From assembly GCA_051294375.1 (NCBI GenBank), contig CM119267.1:26241293-26305292 (forward strand): a stretch of 64,000 nt of DNA. The letters are read 5' to 3'. The translations under genes were made by a program, and so were the position numbers. The DNA is from Paraspadella gotoi. Its lineage: Eukaryota > Animalia > Chaetognatha. Under the pieces are notes generated by a model. That model made no database searches and was not told the DNA's origin. It saw only the letters and a program-made list of their open reading frames with translations. This document shows positions 10,534-52,100 of this stretch, one piece after another. Position 1 is the stretch's first letter. Every line of letters starts with the position of its first letter.

Positions 10534-11020
10534 CAAATAAACCAAACTTAATTGGCCACAATATATCGTAGTCCGTCCGAATTTTAACTACTATTTTTGC
10601 CATTTTTAATTACTGACTTTACTAAGAGATAACAAATTTTTGTATTCAACAACGACAATTTTTAATTTTTTTTTTTTTTAAATAATGACTTTTATCTACT
10701 TTCTAATGGTTAAAATTTATTGTTGATCTCAATTTAGTATAAGCCATTCTATGAGTTGCATTTTTTACTCGTCTTTTTTAAATTTGTTTTCGTTCTTTGA
10801 ATTACTCGCGATATCAGGTTATGAGGAATTAAAAAGTTAAGTATTGGTAATGTGTCGAGAAATTCGTAGTTGTGCCGACTATTCGATCATTTCCATTTGA
10901 TCGTCGGCGCCTCGGATTGAAATCTTAAATCATCATCATTCGATCGTTGATTCTGGTTTCGGTCGGCGTCTAGTTTTGATTTGATCTTCGTCTCCGGATT
11001 TGAACTCTACTCGGTCGCCG

Positions 11021-12619
11021 ATGGATCAGGGTTACGAGCGCCGTCTTCTGTTCGGCGCGACGCCAGTCGCCGGCCCGGGGGCCGATTCGGCCGCGAGGCT
11101 CTTCGGTTCCCCACCCGGGCCTTCGGGAACCAACTTCAACGGTTCCCCGATTCCTACCCGTCGGAACCTGACGCCTGTAAATTCGCCTAACAAAGAAAAG
11201 TACGGCGATCGCTACATTCCAACGAGAATGGGAAACAACTGGGAACTGGCCTTTAACTCAGTCAGAGACAGAGAGGCAGCGTCTCCGACGGCGGCGCGCA
11301 AAGCTCGCGAGATTTCGTCGGACGCGGATCGCAACGGACTCACTTACAATCTCCTTTTAAAGAACGAGCTCTTCGGCGCCGGGATCGAAGATCTCAAAGA
11401 GGCAGGAGTCTCCCCCGGCGCCGGCCTCAACTCGGCCGCCAACACCGCCAACGCTGGGGACACCAACGCCGTTGGCTCCGTGGAGAAATCGCGCGCGCCT
11501 TTACAGCAAATGGAGCCGAGGAATCTATTTACTTATCGGGTCAGTCGACGTAGCATCGACTCCAACGACAGTTCTCCCTACTCGCTCTCCCCTGTCGGCC
11601 TTAAATCGCAGAAGCTGCTCAGTTCCCCGCGTAAGGCCACTCGTAAAATATCCAAGATCCCCTTTAAAGTCTTGGACGCCCCGGACCTTCAAGATGACTT
11701 TTACCTGAACCTGGTAGATTGGTCCTCCCAGAACGTCTTAAGCGTAGGGCTTGGGCCCTGCGTCTACCTGTGGAGCGCCTGCACAAGCCAGGTGACGCGT
11801 CTCTGCGACCTGGCGAGCGACAACGACTCCGTCACGTCCGTCGCTTGGAACGAACGCGGCAACCTCGTCGCTGTCGGCACGAACAAAGGTTTTGTTCAAG
11901 TCTGGGACGTCGCCGCCTCTAAGCGCCTCGCCGTTCTCGAGGGTCACTCGGCCCGCGTGGGGGCGTTGGCCTGGAACGCCGATACGCTTTCGACCGCTAG
12001 TCGTGACAGACTAATTCTTCAGCGAGACATTCGTACGCCACCCGTCGTGCCCGAGCGTCGCCTCGTCGGCCATAGGCAAGAAGTCTGTGGCCTTAAGTGG
12101 TCGCCCGATCATCAGCATCTGGCCTCCGGCGGCAATGACAACAAGCTCTTCGTCTGGAATCAAAGCTCGACGCAACCCGTACAAACCTACGTGGAACACG
12201 TCGCCGCCGTCAAAGCCATCTCGTGGTCGCCTCATCAGCATGGTCTGCTCGCCTCGGGTGGCGGAACGGCCGACCGTTGTATCCGCTTTTGGAACACTTT
12301 GACGGGGCAACCCTTGCAATGCGTCGACACTGGCTCACAAGTGTGTAACTTGGCTTGGTCCAAACACGCAAACGAATTAGTCAGCACTCATGGGTACAGC
12401 CAAAACCAAATTCTCGTGTGGAAGTACCCAGCCCTCGTTCAAGTGGCCAAGTTGACCGGCCACTCCTACCGCGTCCTTTATCTGGCCGTCTCTCCCGACG
12501 GCGAAGCCATCGTCACAGGCGCCGGCGATGAAACCCTTCGCTTCTGGAACGTCTTTTCCAAGTGCCGCTCCACCAAGGAGAGCAAATCGGTTCTCAACCT
12601 TTTTACGCGCATCAGATGA
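11021..12619 (+). CDS. FZR1: Fizzy-related protein (Cdh1), APC/C activator, single exon
   Basis: Starts MDQGYERRLL at ATG 11021. Has the C-box DRYIPTR, KIPFKVLDAPDLQDDFYLNLVDWS, WD40 repeats and the C-terminal IR tail. Confidence 0.97.
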   Translation: MDQGYERRLLFGATPVAGPGADSAARLFGSPPGPSGTNFNGSPIPTRRNLTPVNSPNKEKYGDRYIPTRMGNNWELAFNSVRDREAASPTAARKAREISSDADRNGLTYNLLLKNELFGAGIEDLKEAGVSPGAGLNSAANTANAGDTNAVGSVEKSRAPLQQMEPRNLFTYRVSRRSIDSNDSSPYSLSPVGLKSQKLLSSPRKATRKISKIPFKVLDAPDLQDDFYLNLVDWSSQNVLSVGLGPCVYLWSACTSQVTRLCDLASDNDSVTSVAWNERGNLVAVGTNKGFVQVWDVAASKRLAVLEGHSARVGALAWNADTLSTASRDRLILQRDIRTPPVVPERRLVGHRQEVCGLKWSPDHQHLASGGNDNKLFVWNQSSTQPVQTYVEHVAAVKAISWSPHQHGLLASGGGTADRCIRFWNTLTGQPLQCVDTGSQVCNLAWSKHANELVSTHGYSQNQILVWKYPALVQVAKLTGHSYRVLYLAVSPDGEAIVTGAGDETLRFWNVFSKCRSTKESKSVLNLFTRIR

Positions 12620-16403: not shown

Positions 16404-19400
16404 ATGGCGTCTTCGAGTACGAGTTCTTACGGACTTCCTATGGGGGTTAACCCTGGACTTCCTCCACCTGGCGGCGGCACTGCGAGTGGAGGAATCGTCG
16501 GCGGTGGTGGTGGCGGTGGTGGTGGTGGTGGTCTGTTTAAAAACTGTCTTATGAATCGGTCTATGGGGAGAGACGGATCTTGGCAAGGACGCGTGGACGT
16601 TCTGCTCACAGCCTTCGTCCCTTCTGAATGGGAATTGTCGGAAGAGACGCTGAAGGTAAAACTAAACGAACTCTATTTCCTTTCCATGTTTCCTTTTCTT
16701 CATCCTAATCTCCTTCTTTCCCTTTTCCATTGGAGGTGGCGAAAGACGAACTGCACGAGGATCCCGAAACGCGGGGCGACTACGTGGAGACGGTGCAGGA
16801 GATGAGGATCTCGCGACCCGACCTCGACTTTCTCCGCACGGACGAGGCCTTCGTCCTCCGCTTCCTTCGAGCGCGCAAGTTTTGTCACATGGAAGCCTTC
16901 CAACTTTTCGCCCGCTACTTTGAATTTCGCCAACGAAATCCCGCCATTTTTAAAAACTTTTCCGCGTCGGAGCCGGACATCAGGGACGCCCTCTTCGACG
17001 GGTTTCCGGGCGTTCTTCCGCATCGAGACCATTTCGGCAGAGTCATCCTCACGATGTTCACCTCCAATTGGGATGAGAGCCATTACTCTTTGATATCCAT
17101 TTACCGCGCGGTGCTTCTCACTTTAGAAAAGTTGATAGAGGTAATTAAGACTATGGATCCTTTTCTTCTTGTTTTAAAAAAATAATTATAGGATGGCAAC
17201 AGCCGGGTTGCCTGTAATGGCCATTGGGATGGGGCATCTCACTGTTGGCTTTGGGGGCTTCCGACCCTCAGTGACGCCTCCAGTCACTGGCGCGGTTACC
17301 CTAGGACGATCTCGCTTTGCCAACGCAGAGGGAAGTCGTTAGGACTGTGGATGGAACACTACGCCTGGGATAGTGTGTTCCCCCTCTGAGCCAATGGATT
17401 TGGCTGACGGATGGTGGACGTGAGGCGGTGTGAATATACCACCACAATAGTTAATTTTTATGAGTAACATTTTAATGAAATGAATATTGATTAATTCCGA
17501 TTAGAATTTCTTACTCTCGTGTCTCGAACCGTCTCAGGTTCCGGAGACGCAAATCCACGGTTTCGTCATGATCGTGGACTGGACGGAATTCTCCTTCAAG
17601 CAATCCACCAAACTCAGTCCTAAAATGATGAAGCTGATCGTGGAGGGACTGCAAGTCAGTGTTTCAGTCTATTCTGCGATTCGTTTCAATTCGAGCAAAC
17701 TGAGAAAGAAAATCCTGATTTGAGTTTTTCCTTGATTCTTCAGGATTGTTTTCCCGCGAGATTCGGTGGAATCCACTTCATTAATCAACCCTGGTACGTC
17801 GAGGCTGCCTTCAAGATGGTGCGTCCCTTTCTTAAGGAGAAAAACAGAGAAAGAATATTCATGCATGGCAACAATCTTACGGGTCTCCACCATCAGATTC
17901 ACAAGTAAAGTCACACGGGAGAGGTGAAACATATACCCCGTGTCCGTTCGCGAGTGACATCAAAAAAATACATGTATTTACTATCTAGGAAAAAAGTTAG
18001 AAACATTTTTAATTGAGGATATCTACTTGAAAACTTGTTCGATTTTTAAAAAATCAGGATGTTTCAGATTCTACACTAAATTTCCTTTCAGTTGCTTCCT
18101 TCCATTTTTTCGTAGATCCAACCGTATAGAAGTTAGAGGCAAAATAAGATTGCTACCTCAAGTGAAAAATGGCGGAAAAAATATTAATAATTATAATTCA
18201 TAAGTATATCATTAGTTGGAAAACTACTGGACGTTTTTTATGTATAGGTTTCATTTCGTGTTTAATTCATTTACTATTAAAAGTTAAATTTTTTATCTAA
18301 CACAGTAAAATTGGCAAAAAAAGACCATTATAGGCGTCTTCTTGATTGAATTTTAAAAAAATTTTACATCATAAGAAATTCCTATTAAGGGTCTAATCAA
18401 TGGCGTATCTGAATTATTGTAATGTTGTTATTTTTTTAATTGTAAATCTTAAGTTTTCTTTATACAATTTGTTCAATTAGAAAAAAATGCTGTCCTGAGC
18501 ATGTTCTTGACCGTTTTGAATAATTATTTTATATCTTAAGGATTCCCAGATAATTCTTAATTTAATGGCGTAAATAAATTTTAATAATTTTAAGTAATTA
18601 ATGAGTAATTAATTTATGATAATTTTCTTTTTTAAAAGATTCAGTTTTTTACTGAAAATAAAATTTGATGACCATTAAAGAAAGGTTGTTTTACATAAGT
18701 AAATAACAAATTAATTTTATGAAATTAATATATAATAAACGTCCAGTACTATGCTATAGAATAATGAAAGAAAATTTAACACTCGCGAACGGACATAGGG
18801 TATAAAACAAAAAATATAAAAACTAGAATTATATGTTATTATCTTGAAAGAGAGATGGAGGCCTAAACCCACCATAGCCTGTCCAAAGTCAGAGTCAGGA
18901 TTAGATTCAATTTTGACCGGGAGAAATGTTCGTAGACCTCAACGGAGCACGTCTATCGATTCGTCTTTTCATGGGCTATCTTTTGGTATTAGTTTCAAAA
19001 GAAAAAAAAATTATCCTAGGGTGTTACAGAAGCGTCAAAGTGCCACGAGCGTCAATTATTAGATTTTTAATAAAATTATTTGTGTTAAATGATAGAAACC
19101 AGTTGTAATTGTAATTTTTTATAAATTTTATTAACATAATTTGTGCAGAATTATTATACTTAACTTAACTTTAAATCCTAAACCATAATTGATCCTCGAA
19201 AAAATTAGTATAGAAAATATTCAGTTTAAGTAACACTTCCGGTCCAGCAGCGTTAAAAACGCTGCTGGACCGGAAGTGTTACCCAAACTGAATATTTTCT
19301 ATACTAATTTTTTCGAGGATCAATTATATTCATTTATTTTTTTATTCAGCCTCAAAAAACAATAAAAGCAATAAAAATATACATTTATTAACATATTTTT

Positions 19401-25400: not shown

Positions 25401-28400
25401 GAGAAGAAAAGAGACAAGATCAACTGACTTCATATTAATTTTATTATGAGTGTGCTTTTGGCAATATAAGATAATTGATTTCTAAAATCTAAATAAATCT
25501 GCAAACTACAAAGCATTTTGTGCATAATTATTTATCTAATTTTACTCTATTCGTATTCTACTAAAAAATATGACATTGTAACCTTTTTCCTTAGTTTTTT
25601 GTCTGAAAAAGAAATTCTAGAGCTACGACATTAGCAGTCTCGTTTTTATCTCGTTGGTTTTTAGGCTGTGTAAAAAATGTCAAAGAACCCCAATACTGCT
25701 GCCCCTTTTGGTGGTTTTGCCGGCGGTGGTCGAAAGTTCGCTAAGCGCTTGCAAATACCAAATTCGGGAAACAGAGGAAACTCTGCCCCTGTAGCAGAAC
25801 GAGTGTTCATGATTAATGGACTGTCTGTAAAAAAGATTATTCTTAATAAATTAAACAAAGAATAACTATCTATCAGTCACAGAAATTTAATAATTAACTA
25901 AATTATATCGAAAAATGATAAATATTGTAACTGAAAAAGAGTTCCAATTTGCATGTTGTGATCTAGTTGCTTTCAACTCGCCTGGGTCAAGCGAAATATT
26001 TTTAGAAATGAATTAAATTATATACCAAACGAAAGAGAATTTTATTTCGAATCGAATGGTGTTTTCCGGAAGTTCTATGACCATTTGTTGCGGAAAAAAA
26101 TGTGTCTAAACAGTGCATAAGAAACAAAAATTTTTAAAAATTTTTTGCCATATATTTCGACTTAATTTCTAAGTCATCATCAGTGGCTGAAAGAGACAAA
26201 ACAAGAAAAGGTAATAAATATCAAAAAATAAAAGAAAGGTTAACCATTAAGAGAGAGAGAGAGAGAGTGTAAGTCAAAAGTCAAATTGACCAAATGACCA
26301 AAAACCCAAGAAATGAATGAAGTGGAAAAATCGTGTCTGGTTCTGGAAAAACTAGGGAAATCAAAAGAAGCTGATACACTAAGGCACGAAACGGCCAGTT
26401 TACTCCGCAAAGCTAAGGCTCCTAAATCAAATCTCACAGCAGACCAAAAAAAAGGTTTGTCCTATCTAAAAAAACAAAATAATCTGTTTGTAACACCATT
26501 TAAACAAAGGCTTAGGGTTTGTTGTCCTCGACACGAAACACCTTATAGAAAAAGCTGAGCGCGAATTTCAAAATACCTCTCTTGATACTCCTAACACCAC
26601 AGCTTCTCTGGAGAGGAAAATTCAATCAAAACTAAGAGATCTACATAAAATTCATAAATTAGATGATGAAACTTATAAAAGTATTTACCCTTCAGGCTCT
26701 TTAACCCCGACAGCCTACCCTGTTATAAAAGCACACAAACCAGAAAAAAGTTATCCTGCCCGCGTAATAACTTCTTGTATTGGGTCCCTCAAGAACGCCT
26801 TGCGTCATTCCTAAATAAATTACTCCAACCTTACATTGAGAATTGCCCATTTAGCTGCAAAAACTCTTTTGTTTTTGTCGATAAGATTAAAAATTTGACA
26901 CTTTCACCGAATGAAAAAATGATTTCCTTTGACGCCTCTGCTCTCTTTCCCTCAGTCCCAATCTCTGACTGCCTCCTTTACATTAAAAAGCTTTTAGACG
27001 TTGACAATAAGTTGGCTCGCCGAACTCAACTTTCTCCAACTGAAATCATTGACCTTGCCTCACTCTGTCTTTCCACTTCAGACTTTATTTTCAATGAAAT
27101 GCACCACACTACAAACGAAAGTGGGCCAATTGGTTTATCTCTCATGGTCACCATATCGCAACTTTGGATGTCCCATACAATGAAAGAGGCGATATTAGGG
27201 TGTGTCATATTCCAAAAGTTGTTTGTATCTTCAACACAGCACATTTAACACGACGGGGCATGGCCTAAAACATAGGTTTGCACAACAATCGCCATTCAAA
27301 TTGGTCCAACGCCTTTAGCAGAACTCTCTGAAGGATTTTTTGGCACACCTTTCAATCATCCTCCTCACTGTGTCTAAAGTATGAGAGATTTGATCGTCCA
27401 ACATAATTTATTAGTTAAAGAAGTGCATTAAGTTTGTTCTATTAAAATTTAAGTCCGCAACTACTTCTAGCGGACACACAACAGCATCCAACAAGCTGCT
27501 GCACCAGGTAGTGGCGAATACACTTGCGTACCATACTTCTTGGTTTTTAGAGGTACTATAAAAATTTTCTACACAGTTTTATTCATAAATAGGTCCTCTT
27601 TCTAATTTAATATACATCTTTTAAAAAAATTGGTGTGCCTACATCCTGGAGAGATAATTCCTGCACAGATTCTTTTAAAATAAAATTATATACAAAATAT
27701 TTATTTATATTATTTGCTATAGGTTTAATTAATAGAGCATGATATAATTACAATACACGATAAATTTCATCTTGATTGACCTAATACTTTTTAAGATATC
27801 CTGTTTATAAGAATTTTTGAAAAAAAGTTTTTAACACACACAGAAATAAAAAAATAAAAGTTATGGCATCAAAAATTGCTTTATTAGTTGATAAAACCCT
27901 CTAGGTTTATATCCCAATCATAATTTTATAACACCAATCCCAGAGGCTCTGTGGGGCATTCTAATTTGTTGGAGGATGTGGACCAACAGTTGCAGATAAA
28001 AAAGTTTTATATCAAAATAATTTACATTCTATTATAGATGATAATTTGCTTCTTTTAGTGATATCAGACTTGTACCTGCACTCTTTATTAAGGTGAGCTT
28101 ACTTTTTTGTAGATACTTCCTGTCCAGACTGCTTGAAGGGAAAAAAATTTAGTAACAATCAATAACAACTGTAATTGGGAATTACAATATGTTCAAACCC
28201 GCCTATAAGCATTAAGCATGTTAAGTGTGAGGACTGAGGACACAGTTTGGGGCATGAACCTTAAGCTAGTTACAAGCTCAGGACCCGTTTTATGGCTACG
28301 AGAGGGTGTTAAAAAAGATCGACTGATTTACAAAATTGGAAACTTCAGATTATTTTTCAGAACTTTTTTTCTTAATATGTAAATATTTGTTTTATTGTTA

Positions 28401-31400
28401 TTATATGGCAGTGGCGAGCAGCTAAAAATGCGAATATCTGGGTCTGAAGTTTCCCCGTTTCATGATTAGAGTCGCATCAACGAATAATTTGAAAAAGAAG
28501 ACAGAATCGAAGGCCGGTAGACTATGCGGGTCTACAGCTCCTCTTCTCTCTCTTCCTCCTCCCTCCTCATCCTCCTCACGGGGATTCGGGGTCGCGTTCA
28601 AGTTTAGGTTCAGTTCATCTTCTCCTCTCTCTCAGACTCTTTCTTTCTCCCCTTTTTTTGAACCTTTTTATATTTTCGGATAGAGTATAGAACCCAGATA
28701 TGAAATATATTTATTCACCTCCCATCCCTCCAGTTAGAGTGGCGCCTAGTATCATCGCTCGAACTTTAACCACAAAAGACCCCATTCTCCGAGTCCTGTG
28801 CTGCTACCGGCAAAAAAAAGAGAAGGGGTTGGCATCGAGGCTATCTGAGTTTGTTTGCTTAATGTTGGAAATTTGTATTTGTAGAATCTTTAGTTGCTTG
28901 TGGAAAAATATGACGTATGTTTTTACGTTAGTTATTTTAAATTGTTTATAAATTGTTATAACCTGGACGTTTAAATTCTCGTCGTCAGTATTTTAATGTA
29001 AATAAACATTTAAAAAACACACTGTAAAAGATGTTTTGATTCTCCTTTACCTTTTATCCAATTTTCTTGTACAGTCAAAATTCGTGGGAAATGTTTCTCA
29101 CACCTTGAATTCCGTATAAAATAGAGCCAAAAAAATAAATATAAACTGAACAGCGATTCTTTTTTTTCATTGTAAATATGAATTACTTTAAAGTTATAGT
29201 ATAATCCGAGTTTTGTACATAGTAATGAATTTAAATATAATGATATGAATAATGTTGTTACAATTGTTGTGGTTATTACTAAATTTTGTTTACCTTCAAG
29301 CAGTCTGGACAGAAAGTATCTACAAAGAAGTAAGCACACCTTAATAAAGAGTCAGAGTACAAGTCTGATATCACTATAAAGAGCAAATTATCATCTATAA
29401 TAAATGCAAATTACTTTGATAGAAGCTTTTTTATCTGCAACTGTTGGTCCCACATCCTCCAACAAATTGAGGATGCCTCCACAGAGCCTCTGGGGATTGG
29501 TGCTTACAAAATCATGATTGGAATATAAATCTAGAGGGTTTTATCAACTATAAAGCAATTTTTGATGCATAAACTTTTTTTTTTATTCTGCGTGTATTAA
29601 AATTTTTTTTTCAAAAATTCTTATAAACAGGATATCTTAAAAAGTATTAGGTCACTCAAGATGAAATTTTATCGTGTATTGTTAGAGCCAAACTTCGTCA
29701 ATGGGGTGGGTCAGAAGTTTGATTTGGGAACCTTTCCAAATGAAACTTCATACATTTCTGAGAAAACTTTCAATGGAGCAAAATTTTATAAAATGGCAAG
29801 AAGCATTAGTAATTAATTTTTTAATATTTATTTATAGATAGGAAATGTCAAAAATTTTTTTTTGAATTTTTTATTTTTAAAAGCAGATTCAAATAGCTTA
29901 TGAAAAGTTATCTACACAAAGTATAATTCTTTTTTCAATATTTTGATGATAAGTGGGTTTAAATTGAGAAAAACCTTAAAAAATCATCATCATCATCATC
30001 ATCCGATGATTTTAGCAGTTTTTACTAATTTTTAGTAATAAAACATCAAAATTTTAAAAAGTTGTAATTATATTTTTTGCTTAACTTTTTAAGCTCTATC
30101 AGAATCAATTAAAAAAACTTAAAATATCCAAAAAAAATTTTGACATTATATAGCAATAAAATAATATTAATTAGCGAATTACTCATGGTTCGGAACATTT
30201 TTGTAAAAAAATATTTGAACACAATAATTAATACCAATAATGGATTAGTTTAATGCTGTTCCCATTAAAATTTGAATTTGGTCGGCTACTCTACTAATTG
30301 TAATTATATCATGCTCATTAATTAAACCTATAGCAAATAATATAAATAAATATTTTGTATATAATTTTATTTTAAAAAAATCTGTTCAAGAATTATCCTC
30401 CAGGATGTAGGCACACCAATTTTTTTAAAAGATGTATATTAAATTAGAAAGAGGACCTATTTATGAATAAAACTGTGTAGAAAATTTTTATAGTACCTCT
30501 AAAACCAAGAAGATATGGTACGCAATGTATTGGCCACTACCTGGTGCAGCAGCTTGTGGATGCTGTTGTGTGTCCGCTAGAAGTAGTTGCGACTCTAAAT
30601 TTAATAGAACAAACTTAATGCACTTCTTTAACTAATAAATTATGTTGGACGATCAAATCTCTCATACTTTAGACACAGTGAGGGATGATGTGAAAGGTGT
30701 GCCAAAAATCCTTCAGGAGAGGGTACTGCTAAAGGCGTTGGACCAATTTGAATGGCGATTGGTGCAAACCTATTTTTTTAGGCCATGCCCCGTCGTGTTA
30801 AATGTCGTGAAGATACAAACAACTTTTGGAATATGACACACCCTAAGGCGATATCCATTGCTGAGAGGAAAAATATGATTGTCCCTAGAAACATTAATGT
30901 CTATATGGATGATTGCTGGTGTACTGTAAAATATCCAACTCCACCCAGACGACCAGGACTCCGTAGCGGTACCGCACAAAACTCGGATCCAGCTGCTGAA
31001 TTCAATGATTGTTTGAATGAGGTTCATCCCCGAATCCAGTTCACCCGTGAAGAAGAATCTGAACAGTCAATTGCTTTTTTAGATGTACACCTCACACTCG
31101 CAAGACCGATGGCACACTTATAACACGTATTTACCGCAAACCCTCTAATACTAACCTCTGCAACAAACCCCAATCTTGCCAAAATCCCCAAATAACCATT
31201 GTTTCCTTCAAGGGTGAACTTTGTAGAGCTTTCCGCCTTTGCTCTTCACCTACCCAGACACAGAAAGAAATCCAATTTACACTTGACATGTACGAAGACA
31301 ATGGCCAAGACAGGAAAAAATTAGAAACCATTGCTTCTAACTACCAGCCACCATCTCTCAACGCAATAACACAGACAAAAAACATACTAAAAAACACATG

Positions 31401-33016
31401 AACAGCACTGAAGACATACCTAACAACCTCTTTGATGTTCTTTCATTTCGAGACCACTCCCCCTTTGCAGAAGAAACTCGCCCATACGCATGTATACCTT
31501 ACATTCCGAGCCTGGCACATTCACTTAAAAGATCACTTACCAAGGCAGGCGTCAATACTTGTTTTACTTCTGGGGCAAAATTGAAAGACATTCTTTGTAG
31601 CAAGAACCGCACCCATCCTGACCCAACTCTAAAAAAGGGAATATACAAATTTAATTGTCCTTGTTCCGAAAAATCTATTTATATTGGTCTAACATCTAGA
31701 AATTTTCAAACGAGATTGAAAGAACATGAACGGGCAATTGAAAAGCAGCACTGGAACCACTTAGGTATTACCCAACACCATGAACTTTGCCCTGAGACAC
31801 CAGACTTTTCAAATGCGTCAATTGTAATTATATAAGTTTTTTGAAAATACCTCTGAAATATTAGATAATTAGACAAGGGGAGTAAGCAGAGAAAACTTCC
31901 TATTCATAAAAAAATTGAAAATGAATTTGTCATATTGTTATTTAGATTAATTGACTAAAAAATATTTGGGTAAAAAATATTCATCTTTGTCTCGGTTAAC
32001 TATTAAGTTATTGTTAAAGTTTTGTTTTAATAATATTAATATTCTTTTTGTATTTCTAAAAGCAATGGTTTAAAATTTTGTAAGCGTTTCAAGCTATATT
32101 GCTTCATCTTTTTTTTACTATTTTTGATCTAGTAAGCTTTTTTATTGATGGTCAAGGGTTATGGTCAGACACAGTAATGTCCAGTAGTGTATATCGCACA
32201 TATTACAAAAAGTAACAATCAATTAATTTGGCTCAGAAACAATTTTAAAGGGACAAAATCAGCACGAGACCGTTTCGCCACGTTATTTTTCATTGTGACT
32301 TAATTAAATTCTTCCTATTTAATTAATTCAGTTCATACTTTTATGTTTATTTACTCAATTTCATTAAATAAATTTAAATTGAATTCATTTAATTTATTCA
32401 TTTTTTCAATTCATTTTATTTCATTCAATTCATTTTTTAATCAATTTATTTATTCATTTCATTCATTCATTTCATTCATTCAAGTCATTTCGTTTAATTC
32501 ATTTCACTCATTCATTCTATTCAATTCATTTCATTCAATTCATTCATTCATTCATTCAATTATTTCATTTATTTCATTCATTAAATTTATTCATTCAGTT
32601 CATGTGTGCGGCATTTATGAAAAGCTAAAAAAAGCGGGTGCTCATAAAACTAACATTCTTTTCTGTCATTTAAAAGCTTGTTTATAAAAATCGGAATAGA
32701 GTATGCTTCATTGCTACAACTTTTCCTTTGGTGTCATTTTACGTGGCTCGAGCTCGCCTGGTATTGCGAGGGTTTTTATGAAATTTAAAATTATTTGTTC
32801 ATTCTTTCGCCCCATCCAAGTTCTGGCGGCGTGAGCAGTACTTCCTCCGGCTTCAGCAGTGGATCGTCCGGGTCGTCCTTCTCGTCGTCGTCGTCGTCTT
32901 CTTACGGAGGCCGCTCATCCTCCGGCTTTCCCACTTCCTTCTCTTCTCACTCGGGCTATCGACTTCGACATCAACTAAAACCCGTTCAACTCGATGAAGA
33001 CTTTTTTCTCAGTTGA
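16404..33016 (+). CDS. CLVS: Clavesin-like CRAL-TRIO (Sec14) lipid-binding protein
   Basis: Exons 16404-16655, 16736-17140, 17538-17654, 17744-17904, ~22272-22822 (apparent frameshifts) and a probable last exon 32821-33016 (phase-2 join gives GSSSTTS/SGGVSS). Motifs: [59 protein letters not shown]. Confidence 0.85.
17192..17446 (-). mobile_element. Solo LTR with Pol III boxes and twister fold (family T2)
   Basis: 255 bp, minus strand TGTGGTGG...GTTGCCATC, ATAG TSD (17188-91, 17447-50), A box TGGCTCAGAGG. Lies in intron 2 of the clavesin-like gene. Confidence 0.8.
17244..17324 (-). ncRNA. Type-P5 twister ribozyme candidate
   Basis: GTTGGC aaa GCGA GA TCG tcctaggg TAA CCGC GC CAGTGAC tggaggc GTCACTG AGGG t CGG aa GC CCCC aaa GCCAAC. 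Confidence 0.78.
17936..18800. mobile_element. MITE with ~22-bp TIR
   Basis: CCC.TGTCCGTTCGCGAGTG and its reverse complement, flanked by TATA. Confidence 0.7.
19186..19328. repeat. Near-perfect palindrome with ~70-bp arms
   Basis: ...cacttccggtccagcagcgtt aaa aacgctgctggaccggaagtg..., with two mismatches. Confidence 0.9.
20890..20927 (+). ncRNA. Minimal Penelope-type hammerhead ribozyme
   Basis: CTGATGA aGACTT gtacaa AAGTC GAA ACATGT C; stem I is weak. Confidence 0.7.
21494..22202. mobile_element. Same MITE family, uninterrupted ~710 bp copy
   Basis: TIR CAGAAGGCTTCATATTATAAAATGT, TA TSD. Confidence 0.85.
23112..26115 (-). mobile_element. Decayed DDE DNA transposon with transposase remnants
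   Basis: Degenerate inverted ends 23112-23255 and 25980-26115. Minus-strand fragments [21 protein letters not shown] (25150-25360) and NDAAER...QGIEEHR (23540-23700). Superfamily uncertain. Confidence 0.6.
26147..26187 (-). ncRNA. Minimal hammerhead ribozyme inverted at the 5' flank of the Penelope-like element
   Basis: GCCA CTGATGA tGACTT agaaatt AAGTC GAA ATAT A TGGC. Confidence 0.7.
28190..28312 (+). mobile_element. Degenerate family T3 LTR fragment
   Basis: Shares ccgcctataagcat, gtgagga, ttggggc and caagctcaggacccgtt..atggctac with 40770-40975; the ribozyme core is decayed. Confidence 0.55.
29682..30294. mobile_element. hAT-like MITE nested in the right arm; related copy at ~34573-35187
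   Basis: TAGAG...CTCTA ends. Absent from the left arm. Internal similarity to the 34.6-35.2 kb copy, which is flanked by repeated GTCAAAG. Confidence 0.6.
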
Positions 33017-49100: not shown

Positions 49101-52100
49101 TCCCAACCCAAAGGTCCGGGGTTCTAGCCCGGTGGTCGTCTGGCAGTTAAGAGGGACGGGGCGCTTAACCCGCCTGTAACATGGTGTTACAGCCTGATCC
49201 GAAGCTCAGGGACTGCTTATATTTAACGGTTCTGTCACTAACACATAACAATAATTACTGTCTCTTCAGGTGGTTATTATGTTGAAAAACTACTTTTACA
49301 AACCGGAAGTTACCAAAAACAGCAAAAAATAAGTTCTAAAGCTACGAACTAATTTTATAAATTCGCTAGATATGTTACATGTTCTTTTTTATCATTTATT
49401 TTAAAAGTTTAATTTAAATATTTTATTTTGTTATTAGATATTGTTTAATTATGCAGACGCGCAAGCTTTTTTACTTTAACTTTGATGTTTAAAATGGCTG
49501 ATGAACTTTCATTGTATTTTATGTCAGATACCTAAATCAATAATACCAATATACAGTCTAAGAGACAGTAATTAATGTTATGTGTTAGTGACAGAACTGT
49601 TCAATATAAGCAGTCCCTGAGCTTCGGATCAGGCTGTAACACCGTGTTACAGGCGGGTTAAGCGCCCCGTCCCTCTTAACTGCTAGGCGACCACCGGGCT
49701 AGAACCCTGGACCTTTGGGTTGGAAGGCTAATGACTTGCCTCCAGCACAAATGGCCACTAATGAACGGTTGGTGGATTTTAGTCCACCATAATACATTTT
49801 TTTTTCCGGATTTTTTCATTTATTCTCTTTGATAGTAACGTCTGATGAGATAGTAACTTTTTTAATTGCGCTGCAAATTCTCGCGAAGAAACTCAATATG
49901 CTAATAATTTTAAATGTTTATAATTTTTTTATTACAATATACAGAAGGCTTCATATTATAAAATGTGGTACCCCTTTTTTTGTGACCATAATCTGTTCCC
50001 ACCAAAGTACTCGATCGAATTTTATGAAATTTTACATATACAGTTCTAATGACGATACAAATGGAACTATCGAGGCGAATTTTGATATTCAACCCCTGAC
50101 AAGAGATACAGGGTTCTAGGGCTGGTTGCATCAGGTGCATTAATGTCTTAAACATGTAAAAAAAACATTTTTGAACTAAAATTGATAAATTTTCAATAAT
50201 TAAGCATTGTTTGAAGATGCATGGTTCATCGTTTTACTTACAATTTTCCAAAATTATTCCAAATTTGACTTGAACAGATGATGTTCATGAAGATGAAAAT
50301 TAAGTTAAACTAACATTTTTGAGGTAATAAATAGGTTTTTGTGAAAGAGTAAACGTCTGTGCAATTGTTCAAAACAAAAATATTTGAAAAATTTTTAAAA
50401 AATTTTTGATCATTTTTTGCCCCAATGGGTGACCCCCCAGAGGGCCCATATCTCATCTAAGGGGTCAATTATTAAAATTCGCCTCGATATTTCTATTTGT
50501 ATTCACATAGGGATCGTTCATTCCAAATTTCAATAAATTTGGTCCAGTAGTTATCTCGGAACGTGTTCTGGTCACAAAAAGGGGTACTATGGGAACGGAG
50601 ATAGCCTGTGATACCCGGGGCGCGGGGTATCTTACCAACTGGCGTAGGGGCTGCGGACCCTCAGTGACCGCCTCCTGTCACTGGCATGTTTATACCGGCA
50701 CCGTCACATTTAAGCCAGAACCGGGATACCCAGGGATTGAACCCGGGACGCACGGATGGAATGAGATGATTTAGCCTGCTCAGCCATTGAGACGAGGCTG
50801 AGGACGACAGCAGTGAGGCAGCTTTAAGTCTTGCTGCCACAGGATCCCCCACCAGACTTCTCCACAGGGGCCTAATCCTGAGGAGATGTCTGAGAGAAGG
50901 TTTTGATCTCATTGCCATAGTGAGAGCGAGCGGGCGAGCGAGCGAGCGAGTCTGGAGCGTTACCAGAGAAGTAGGGCATAGGCATGATATGCATACCCTA
51001 AGCGACGTAAGCGTGGGCGCACGGTGCGCAGCGGTTGCGTGTTCAAGAGTAGGGCTCACCACTTATGGCAACGGGAGGATAGCCTGTGATACCCGGGGCG
51101 CGGGGTATCTCACCAACTGGCGTAGGGGCTGCGGACCCTCAGTGACCGCCTCCTGTTACTGGCATGTTTATACCGGCACCGTCACATTTAAGCCAGAACC
51201 GGGATACCCAGGGATTGAACCCGGGACGCACGGATGGAATGAGATGATTTAGCCTGCTCAGCCATTGAGACGAGGCTGAGGACGGACAGCAGTGAGGCAG
51301 CTTTAAGTCTTGCTGCCCAGTACAATTTATATATGAAGCCTTCTGTAATTTTGTTTAAAACTTATGGAGCTTTGTTGTTTACGCGATATGTGATGATAAA
51401 GAAATACGATCAAAAAGTTATGGCGGCATAGTTGGTTTAATACACATTTAGTTATTTAAGTTAATGATGAGTTAGCTACTATAAAATATTTGTTAGTATA
51501 TATTTTATATTTGTATATTTTTTTAAAATTTATATTTGTTAAAATTCCTTTCTTGTTTTTATACTAAATATAAAAATGTTTTCTTTTAGATTCCGATTAC
51601 CGTTCATTCGAACTTAAACAATCCAGGAATGGCTCAGCAATGCCTCGAGAATATGATCAACACGATGCGTCTCAAGGTGAATTACGTTTTCCTTAAATTT
51701 TGCTTTTGTCCCTCTTAGTGGTCATCGTTTCTTTGTTTTCACTGTGTTTTTATCGTCGCAATTGCTTTGCGTTTGCGACGATCTTGTAACGCTTTTGCGC
51801 ATAACTTATCGATCGCCTTTTTGATGATTAAATTTGGGTGTATGAAGCTGAAAATTTATATACAGTTTTTCATCATCGAGGTCCTTGAAATTGGGTGAGA
51901 ACAGTTATTAAATATGTTTTGTTTACATTTTATCAAAACAAACAAATTTCCTCTATTATTTTTATGTCTCCTCTCTCTCTTTTAATTAATATAATTATAT
52001 GTACTATGTAGCTCTCTCTCTCTTTTCCCCAGGCTGATTTATCGGGGAAAAAAAGTCTGCAGCTGGCTCTGCAGGGGCTTTCTTTCTTTTTCTTCTGCTG

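Follow-up and report, generated by a model that had tools for sequence, protein, structure and literature searches.

A non-coding two-LTR element of the chaetognath Paraspadella gotoi with tRNA-type promoter motifs and a predicted twister ribozyme in each LTR

The DNA considered here is a stretch of 64,000 nucleotides from the chaetognath Paraspadella gotoi (GenBank assembly GCA_051294375.1, contig CM119267.1, positions 26,241,293 to 26,305,292 of the forward strand), referred to as the window, and all coordinates are counted from its first letter. On the minus strand at 50588-51319 it contains a non-coding element with two long terminal repeats (LTRs), a terminal-repeat retrotransposon in miniature (TRIM). 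Each LTR carries A- and B-box motifs of the transfer RNA (tRNA) type, followed by a predicted self-cleaving ribozyme of the twister class, type P5, whose fold is conserved in a second LTR family represented in the same window. The arrangement resembles that of the LTR retrozymes of plants, and we lean, with reservations set out below, towards an animal counterpart of these elements.

Anatomy of the element and its family

The element and its insertion site comprise the following parts.

49927..51360, no strand assigned: host element resembling a miniature inverted-repeat transposable element (MITE), with the TRIM within its right arm
50588..51319, minus strand: full element, a non-coding TRIM with two LTRs, 732 bp, delimited by sequence comparison and by family ends fixed in contigs
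51320..51323, no strand assigned: target-site duplication (TSD) GTAC, 4 bp, 5' side
51064..51319, minus strand: 5' LTR, 256 bp, its 5' end one base shorter than in the 3' LTR and in most family contigs
51049..51061, minus strand: primer-binding site (PBS), at 11 of 13 positions the complement of the 3' end of honeybee tRNA-Trp (Kojima 2024, Fig. S2)
51033..51063, minus strand: primer-side block of 31 bases, common to the sister LTR family by comparison with a contig of run X10
50845..50853, minus strand: G-run resembling a polypurine tract (PPT), preceding the 3' LTR
50588..50841, minus strand: 3' LTR, 254 bp, with the start TGTGG and the end CCATA
50584..50587, no strand assigned: TSD GTAC, 4 bp, 3' side; a single GTAC stands in the intact MITE arm
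50692..51169, minus strand: unit predicted to result from self-cleavage, with a length of 478 nt in this copy and no TTT run

The two LTRs are identical at 250 of 253 aligned bases, with four single-base gaps in addition, and are spaced by 478 bases. Between them lies an interior of 222 nt, in which a TGG motif begins 2 nt past the 5' LTR and a G-run (50850-50846) is followed by 4 nt and then by the 3' LTR. This layout, including the GTAC duplication, is the one that an earlier note had read from the letters alone; the short inverted termini described there exist as well but are imperfect, matching at four of five positions. A coding role of the element was rejected, because the longest frame of the interior that starts with methionine has 40 codons and a stop-free frame of 153 codons has no Pfam match. 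The interior also contains a short tandem run of GAGC (50920-50955).

The MITE-like host element (49927-51360) is itself present in high copy and has long imperfect inverted arms. Its intact left arm shows one GTAC; a few bases distinguish this arm from the one right of the insertion. As the left arm is not an exact empty allele, the evidence for the TSD consists of the flanks and the family consensus.

The family was surveyed in contigs of public sequencing runs (X1, X5, X9, X10, X11 and X12) aligned to the element; contig depth in this survey is not copy number, and full elements and solo LTRs are indistinguishable in contigs. The stretch of the 5' LTR is covered by 1,615 contigs of run X1, of which 67 exit at 51063-51065 (40, 21 and 6) and 49 at 51317; the corresponding figures for run X5 are 460 contigs, 29 exits (16 and 13) and 27 exits. 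Beyond the LTR ends the contig flanks disagree with one another (consensus agreement 0.44-0.58), and the 4-mers just outside are ATAT or GTAC. Since the contigs exit at constant positions into unrelated flanks next to ATAT or GTAC, the family has fixed ends and a target 4-mer in which purine and pyrimidine alternate, which bears out across the contigs of X1 and X5 that this is an LTR retroelement. The LTRs of the family start with TGTGG. The element belongs to a young, high-copy mobile family with fixed ends.

In runs X5, X9 and X10, two homopolymer stretches of the interior have single additional bases in most of the contig depth, so that the family unit is probably 480-481 nt long; the exact monomer of 478 nt proposed by the earlier note holds for this copy. 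Runs X11 (5 contigs) and X12 (1 contig) contribute short pieces of the element with a depth below 11 per contig. The contigs of X9 and X10, runs that may be of RNA, also cover the flanking MITE and are therefore uninformative on transcription or circles. Contig joints at 51086-51256 and 50622-50919 mark LTR derivatives from which ribozyme and B box are missing, with skips of, for instance, 77 and 129 bases, each found in two runs; three runs also show a back-jump of 298 bases. These are perhaps deleted or tandem forms.

Twister fold and promoter motifs of the LTRs

The predicted functional parts of the LTRs, together with the solo LTR of the sister family, are located as follows.

51253..51264, minus strand: A-box motif of the 5' LTR, part of a predicted promoter of RNA polymerase III (Pol III); the solo LTR retains a motif like it
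51211..51222, minus strand: B-box motif of the 5' LTR
51117..51196, minus strand: type-P5 twister fold of the 5' LTR, predicted cut 51170/51169, with one P3 mismatch private to this copy
51171..51178, minus strand: self-complementary P1 octamer of the 5' LTR, a 2-pair hairpin alone and an 8-pair duplex with the other LTR
50775..50786, minus strand: A-box motif of the 3' LTR
50733..50744, minus strand: B-box motif of the 3' LTR
50639..50718, minus strand: type-P5 twister fold of the 3' LTR, predicted cut 50692/50691, with P2, P3, P4, P5, T1 and T2 all paired
50693..50700, minus strand: self-complementary P1 octamer of the 3' LTR
50576..50580, minus strand: first downstream T-run, in the flank, the predicted Pol III stop for this copy
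17192..17446, minus strand: solo LTR of the sister family, 255 bp, with 72% identity across the aligned bases and a CTAT duplication
17324-17244, minus strand: type-P5 twister fold of the solo LTR, predicted cut 17298/17297

Read from 5' to 3', the fold consists of a P5 strand, a P2 strand, G, A, a T1 strand, a short P1, U-A-A, P2, T2, P3, P4-L4 and P5. All features of type P5 are present, namely P2, P4, the pseudoknots T1 and T2, the U-A-A cleavage loop, the general-base G and the ends in P5, and the general-base G, the U-A-A of the cleavage site and both pseudoknots agree with the published twister layout. A twister descriptor, which was written after inspection of the element, accepts both strand orders and leaves one L4 base free, has three matches in the window, all in one LTR family group (the two LTRs and the solo LTR), and it returns the type-P5 topology and both U/A sites that had been proposed. 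Any match at all was obtained in 2 of 100 shuffles of the window and in 1 of 20,000 shuffles of the LTR. The description of the twister as fully pairing stands for P2 to P5, T1 and T2 of the 3' LTR, but not for the monomer P1 with its two pairs, for P3 of the 5' LTR with its mismatch, or for one L4 base off the published consensus. This base is C where published twisters have A, by our mapping at the trans A.A position. Data of McKinley (2024) indicate that an A-to-C change is tolerated at this position and that about 94% of natural twister candidates cleaved.

The fold is conserved in the solo LTR of the sister family. Between the solo LTR and the element, four pairs are preserved by changes on both sides (two in P2 and one each in T1 and P5), T2 and P3 are identical, and in the solo LTR one pair of P2 and the outer pair of P4 are broken. 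An A-box-like motif is found in it at 17393, and its B box is worn. Within the family, 16 variant sites are listed from the contigs, five of them in the ribozyme. These comprise two P1 sites, a junction site, the -1 base (mainly from one X12 contig), which is a tolerant position, and the P3 mismatch private to this copy. None of the 16 listed sites in family contigs falls on the general-base G, A+1, A+2, T1, T2 or L4.

Contigs of runs X1 and X10 contain a sister-type LTR joined to the same primer-side block. In the X10 contig the loose end of this LTR equals window positions 17223-17252 at 30 of 30 bases and is joined to 51033-51063, and the 9 differences between the LTRs of the two families explain the 8 by which the contig departs from the element over 51033-51094. 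From this joint and the tally of differences it follows that both families have the 31-base block 51033-51063 in common and diverge past it, which suggests from sequence comparison an extended primer-pairing site. Its part 51033-51046 presumably resembles the T arm of tRNA-Trp; twelve viral loci examined for this site contain no tRNA. The solo LTR adjoins the end of a CRAL-TRIO-type exon (16709-17185), and its position is probably intronic.

Several other candidates were set aside. None of 32 loci with a 17-base core pattern (2 viral, 30 from metagenomes) passes the twister descriptor, and they were rejected as chance occurrences, with no alignment extending past the pattern. The type-P1 register of the Rfam alignment was rejected because two of its four P2 pairs are broken, and two microRNA matches in Rfam at E 4-8 were taken as chance. 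The hammerhead models of Rfam have no match at E up to 10.

The A boxes (51264/50786) and B boxes (51221/50743), which the earlier note had placed in both LTRs, were found 43 nt apart in each of them, and both TRGCY and GGTTC are present in the LTR. Such boxes are known from Helenus/TRIMp3, animal TRIMs with tRNA-type boxes in the LTR, TSDs of 4 bp and Gypsy-like primer sites, for which the published description gives the motifs TRGCY...YGG (A box) and GGTTC (B box) (Kojima 2024, PMC10886601). Among the tRNAs printed in Fig. S2 of that study, honeybee tRNA-Trp fits the primer site best. The sense strand of the element has no run of four T (T4) before the flank at 50580, and that of the unit is free of TTT, as are 35 of 10,000 base shuffles. 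Furthermore, TT is depleted on the sense strand only, with 13 occurrences against about 26 expected from base counts.

In both families P1 is palindromic with differing sequences, and the duplexes are computed at -10.9 and -11.0 kcal/mol. The monomer P1 with its two pairs has a probability of 0.0 in isolated folds, compared with eight pairs for the inter-LTR P1. In the unconstrained fold of a 696-nt precursor the inter-LTR P1 together with both swapped P2 helices has a probability of 0.25, and the double fold lies 14.6 kcal/mol below two monomer folds and 24.5 kcal/mol above the minimum. According to these models the two LTR ribozymes may pair through the palindromic P1 as a double twister; the monomer twister fold is also feasible. 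The fold of the 478-nt unit is more stable than that of any of 100 shuffles (z -3.6), and as a circle the unit has 63% of its bases paired, compared with 70% quoted for retrozymes. In both families, the five bases after P2 (within 51196-51157 of the minus strand in the present element) can alternatively pair with the 5' strand of P5, which could act in the modelled structures as a switch keeping the ribozyme inactive in the unit RNA.

Proposed mechanism and competing explanations

The reading that we prefer, with a little more confidence than doubt, is that of an animal LTR retrozyme, in which read-through by Pol III, two cuts, circularisation and Gypsy-driven copying would occur in turn. Transcription by Pol III would begin in the 5' LTR, a few bases ahead of its A box, and continue across the element. 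Within one transcript the self-complementary P1 octamers of the two LTRs could pair and give two active sites, and this inter-LTR pairing would hold back cutting until transcription of the element is complete. Cuts at 51170/51169 and 50692/50691 would leave 5'-OH and cyclic-phosphate ends, which a host ligase of the RtcB type would join, closing the doubly cut unit of about 480 bases into a circle. Because the doubly cut unit is without a terminal repeat, normal first-strand transfer would be impossible unless it is circularised. Priming by tRNA-Trp at the primer site and reverse transcription over more than one unit round the circle would rebuild both LTRs, and a Gypsy-type integrase would insert the product at 4-mers alternating purine and pyrimidine. 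Experimental precedent for such a cycle comes from plant LTR retrozymes (PMC4918200, PMC7761336). By analogy with related elements, mobilisation by a Gypsy-type helper is the expected route.

A number of results weigh against this reading. The Rfam search, proposed by the earlier note as a check of the twister, has no match at gathering score over the 64 kb; the twister-P1 model reaches 18.3 bits (E 0.78, threshold 67.2) in the 3' LTR only, and the twister-P5 model has no match at E up to 10. With pseudoknots uncounted, the active fold lies 6.3-6.9 kcal/mol above the minimum-energy fold in the isolated ribozymes, and the 24.5 kcal/mol given above when both sites form in the precursor. The covariation comes from two families only, and in a young family few variants are expected at any position. 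Concerning the promoter, the pair of A and B motifs also occurs in 205 of 10,000 LTR shuffles, the A box has a purine instead of the usual pyrimidine before GG, the B box of the sister solo LTR is worn, Rfam has no tRNA match in the LTR, and ARAGORN makes a tRNA-like call only at a threshold also met by 648 of 1,000 shuffles. The absence of T4 is not significant (3,228 of 10,000 shuffles), nor is that of TTT when dinucleotides are kept (1,974 of 10,000). The primer site has two mismatches in 13 positions, and the reference tRNA is that of the honeybee, not of the host. P1 of twisters is reported to be dispensable, so that an inter-LTR dimer would not be required. Six frames of the window were tested against Pfam, none has a retroelement domain, and no helper was found in the window. 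Self-cleavage, Pol III transcription and circular RNA are predictions.

The best surviving alternative, absent from the earlier note and in our view an unlikely one, is that a linear RNA of about 580 nt transposes, reaching from the A-box start to the cut in the 3' LTR. The ribozyme would then be active as a substitute for a terminator and doubly cut RNAs would be by-products, while the tRNA-like stretch of about 100 bases would serve as a terminal repeat and permit ordinary strand transfer. Cassandra relies on a linear Pol III RNA whose terminal repeat is short, and the element is without a T4 terminator, whereas most published animal Helenus LTRs have, by eye, a T-run right after the B box. 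The cost of the site in the 3' LTR of this copy, 10.3 kcal/mol compared with 14.6 kcal/mol for the 5' site, points in the same direction, although this asymmetry comes in part from the mismatch private to this copy. However, the same ribozyme is present in both LTRs, the doubly cut unit is unusually structured (by the z value given above), and plant LTR retrozymes of similar layout as well as animal non-LTR retrozymes are described as accumulating circles.

Less probable still is that the element is an ordinary Helenus TRIM and that its twister fold, derived from the capture of a SINE-like repeat (SINE, short interspersed nuclear element), is an inactive passenger. The sub-threshold Rfam score, the position of the fold above the minimum-energy structure and the tiny P1 would fit such a passenger; SINE-like repeats of schistosomes combine a tRNA promoter with a ribozyme (PMC6765202), and capture of a SINE has been put forward to explain how Helenus arose (PMC10886601). 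On the other hand, two families of 72% identity retain the catalytic bases and both pseudoknots, with compensatory changes, no listed variant lies in the ribozyme core, and most natural twisters with such imperfections cleave. The last explanation, that a retrozyme is cut from Pol II or read-through host transcripts and the A and B boxes are not a working promoter, agrees with the weak statistics of the tRNA-like part, the worn B box of the solo LTR and the fact that two cuts would release the unit from any sense transcript, but is quite improbable in view of the 43-nt spacing of motifs that conform to the Helenus description, the A box kept in the sister family and the depletion of TT on the sense strand only.

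Elsewhere in the window, the product of an intronless Fzr/Cdh1 gene (10985-12619, plus strand) is distinguished from most animal orthologues by about 50 inserted residues; three proteins in the databases share 83-86% identity with it, and the best full-length named matches are from spiralians (70-76%). Two open frames on the plus strand (26679-27248 and 31341-31835) have no Pfam match; we take them to resemble worn fragments of a Penelope-type or other reverse-transcriptase element.

Comparison with known systems

The combination of an LTR with tRNA-type boxes is not new, as it is that of Helenus/TRIMp3, and this part of the novelty claimed by the earlier note falls away. The likeness covers a short non-coding element with two LTRs below about 1.3 kb, A and B boxes in the LTR, a primer site for a tRNA 3' end, a purine tract, a 4-bp TSD in animals, solo LTRs and a proposed Gypsy helper, to which PBS and TSD of Helenus point (PMC10886601). 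In contrast, most animal Helenus LTRs consist of B box, T-run and LTR end, whereas about 150 bases with the twister and without T4 follow the B box here. The main text on Helenus does not mention a ribozyme, and no family in its supplement resembled the element by eye or in a search for the twister motif (PMC10886601). What stands of the novelty is that a self-cleaving ribozyme motif in Helenus-type LTRs is unreported in the literature searched. This literature describes neither an animal LTR retrozyme nor a twister in an LTR; Repbase, Dfam, Roth et al. (2014) and the supplement of McKinley could list the family.

Similar in layout are two consensuses from Synergus wasps, Helenus-2_SyJa and Helenus-2_SyUm, with the LTR start TGTGG, A and B boxes near the 5' part, a tRNA-Trp primer site, a G-run plus short spacer and, immediately behind the B box, a motif resembling a ribozyme. 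Their LTR sequences in the supplement (Helenus-2_SyJa-LTR and Helenus-2_SyUm-LTR) contain a candidate type III hammerhead with an 11-base loop-loop complement, unremarked in the paper (PMC10886601). They differ from the present element in an interior of about 485 nt and in the candidate motif, which is a hammerhead of type III instead of a twister. This motif, recognised by eye from its core, is presumably such a hammerhead, and its three stems are visible.

Plant LTR retrozymes (Cervera et al. 2016, PMC4918200; de la Pena et al. 2020, PMC7761336) share with the element a ribozyme motif in each LTR, a non-coding interior, PBS, PPT, a 4-bp TSD, a structured RNA of unit length and a Gypsy helper, which is proposed here. 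In the plant model the unit RNA is reverse-transcribed as a circle. As described in these papers, they differ in their type III hammerhead, a tRNA-Met primer, units of 600-1000 nt and their occurrence in flowering plants; Pol III boxes are not described, and circles and cleavage are shown there but only predicted here. Lacking the hammerhead that the definition demands, the element does not formally belong to the LTR retrozymes, although its layout is like theirs.

In animals, non-LTR retrozymes (PMC7229834; bioRxiv 10.64898/2026.07.22.740005) are likewise non-coding and yield a unit RNA by self-cleavage, some of them needing dimeric ribozymes, and the SINE-like repeats of schistosomes (PMC6765202) likewise join a promoter to a ribozyme, in their case a hammerhead. 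Both differ by tandem repeats, type I hammerheads and ties to Penelope-like elements, and they are without LTR, PBS, PPT and 4-bp TSD. The twister variants of Perere-3/RTE (Liu et al. 2021, PMC8501958) also serve an animal retroelement and have a short or imperfect P1; they belong to an autonomous non-LTR element with a single type-P1 ribozyme at its 5' end and no circle.

A preprint of 2026 and a review of 2020 still confine LTR retrozymes to plants and hammerheads. If the element cleaves and circularises, LTR retrozymes would be limited to neither, the twister would gain a second biological role and TRIMp3 and retrozymes would be joined. A twister that is domain-swapped in nature would be a counterpart to the double hammerhead, and the hammerhead-like motif in the wasp Helenus consensuses suggests further unnoticed ribozymes in libraries of transposable elements. 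A wider and more tentative idea, which we consider possible though doubtful, is that animals hold an unrecognised class of Pol III-driven LTR retrozymes: TRIMs primed by tRNA-Trp with a ribozyme slot in the LTR that holds a twister in this element and, in Synergus wasps, a type III hammerhead. In the present family a double twister with palindromic P1 would cut only the full-length transcript and release a promoter-bearing circular RNA, to be copied by Gypsy enzymes. Such elements would offer a small and abundant system for asking whether circular RNA is a true intermediate of retrotransposition.

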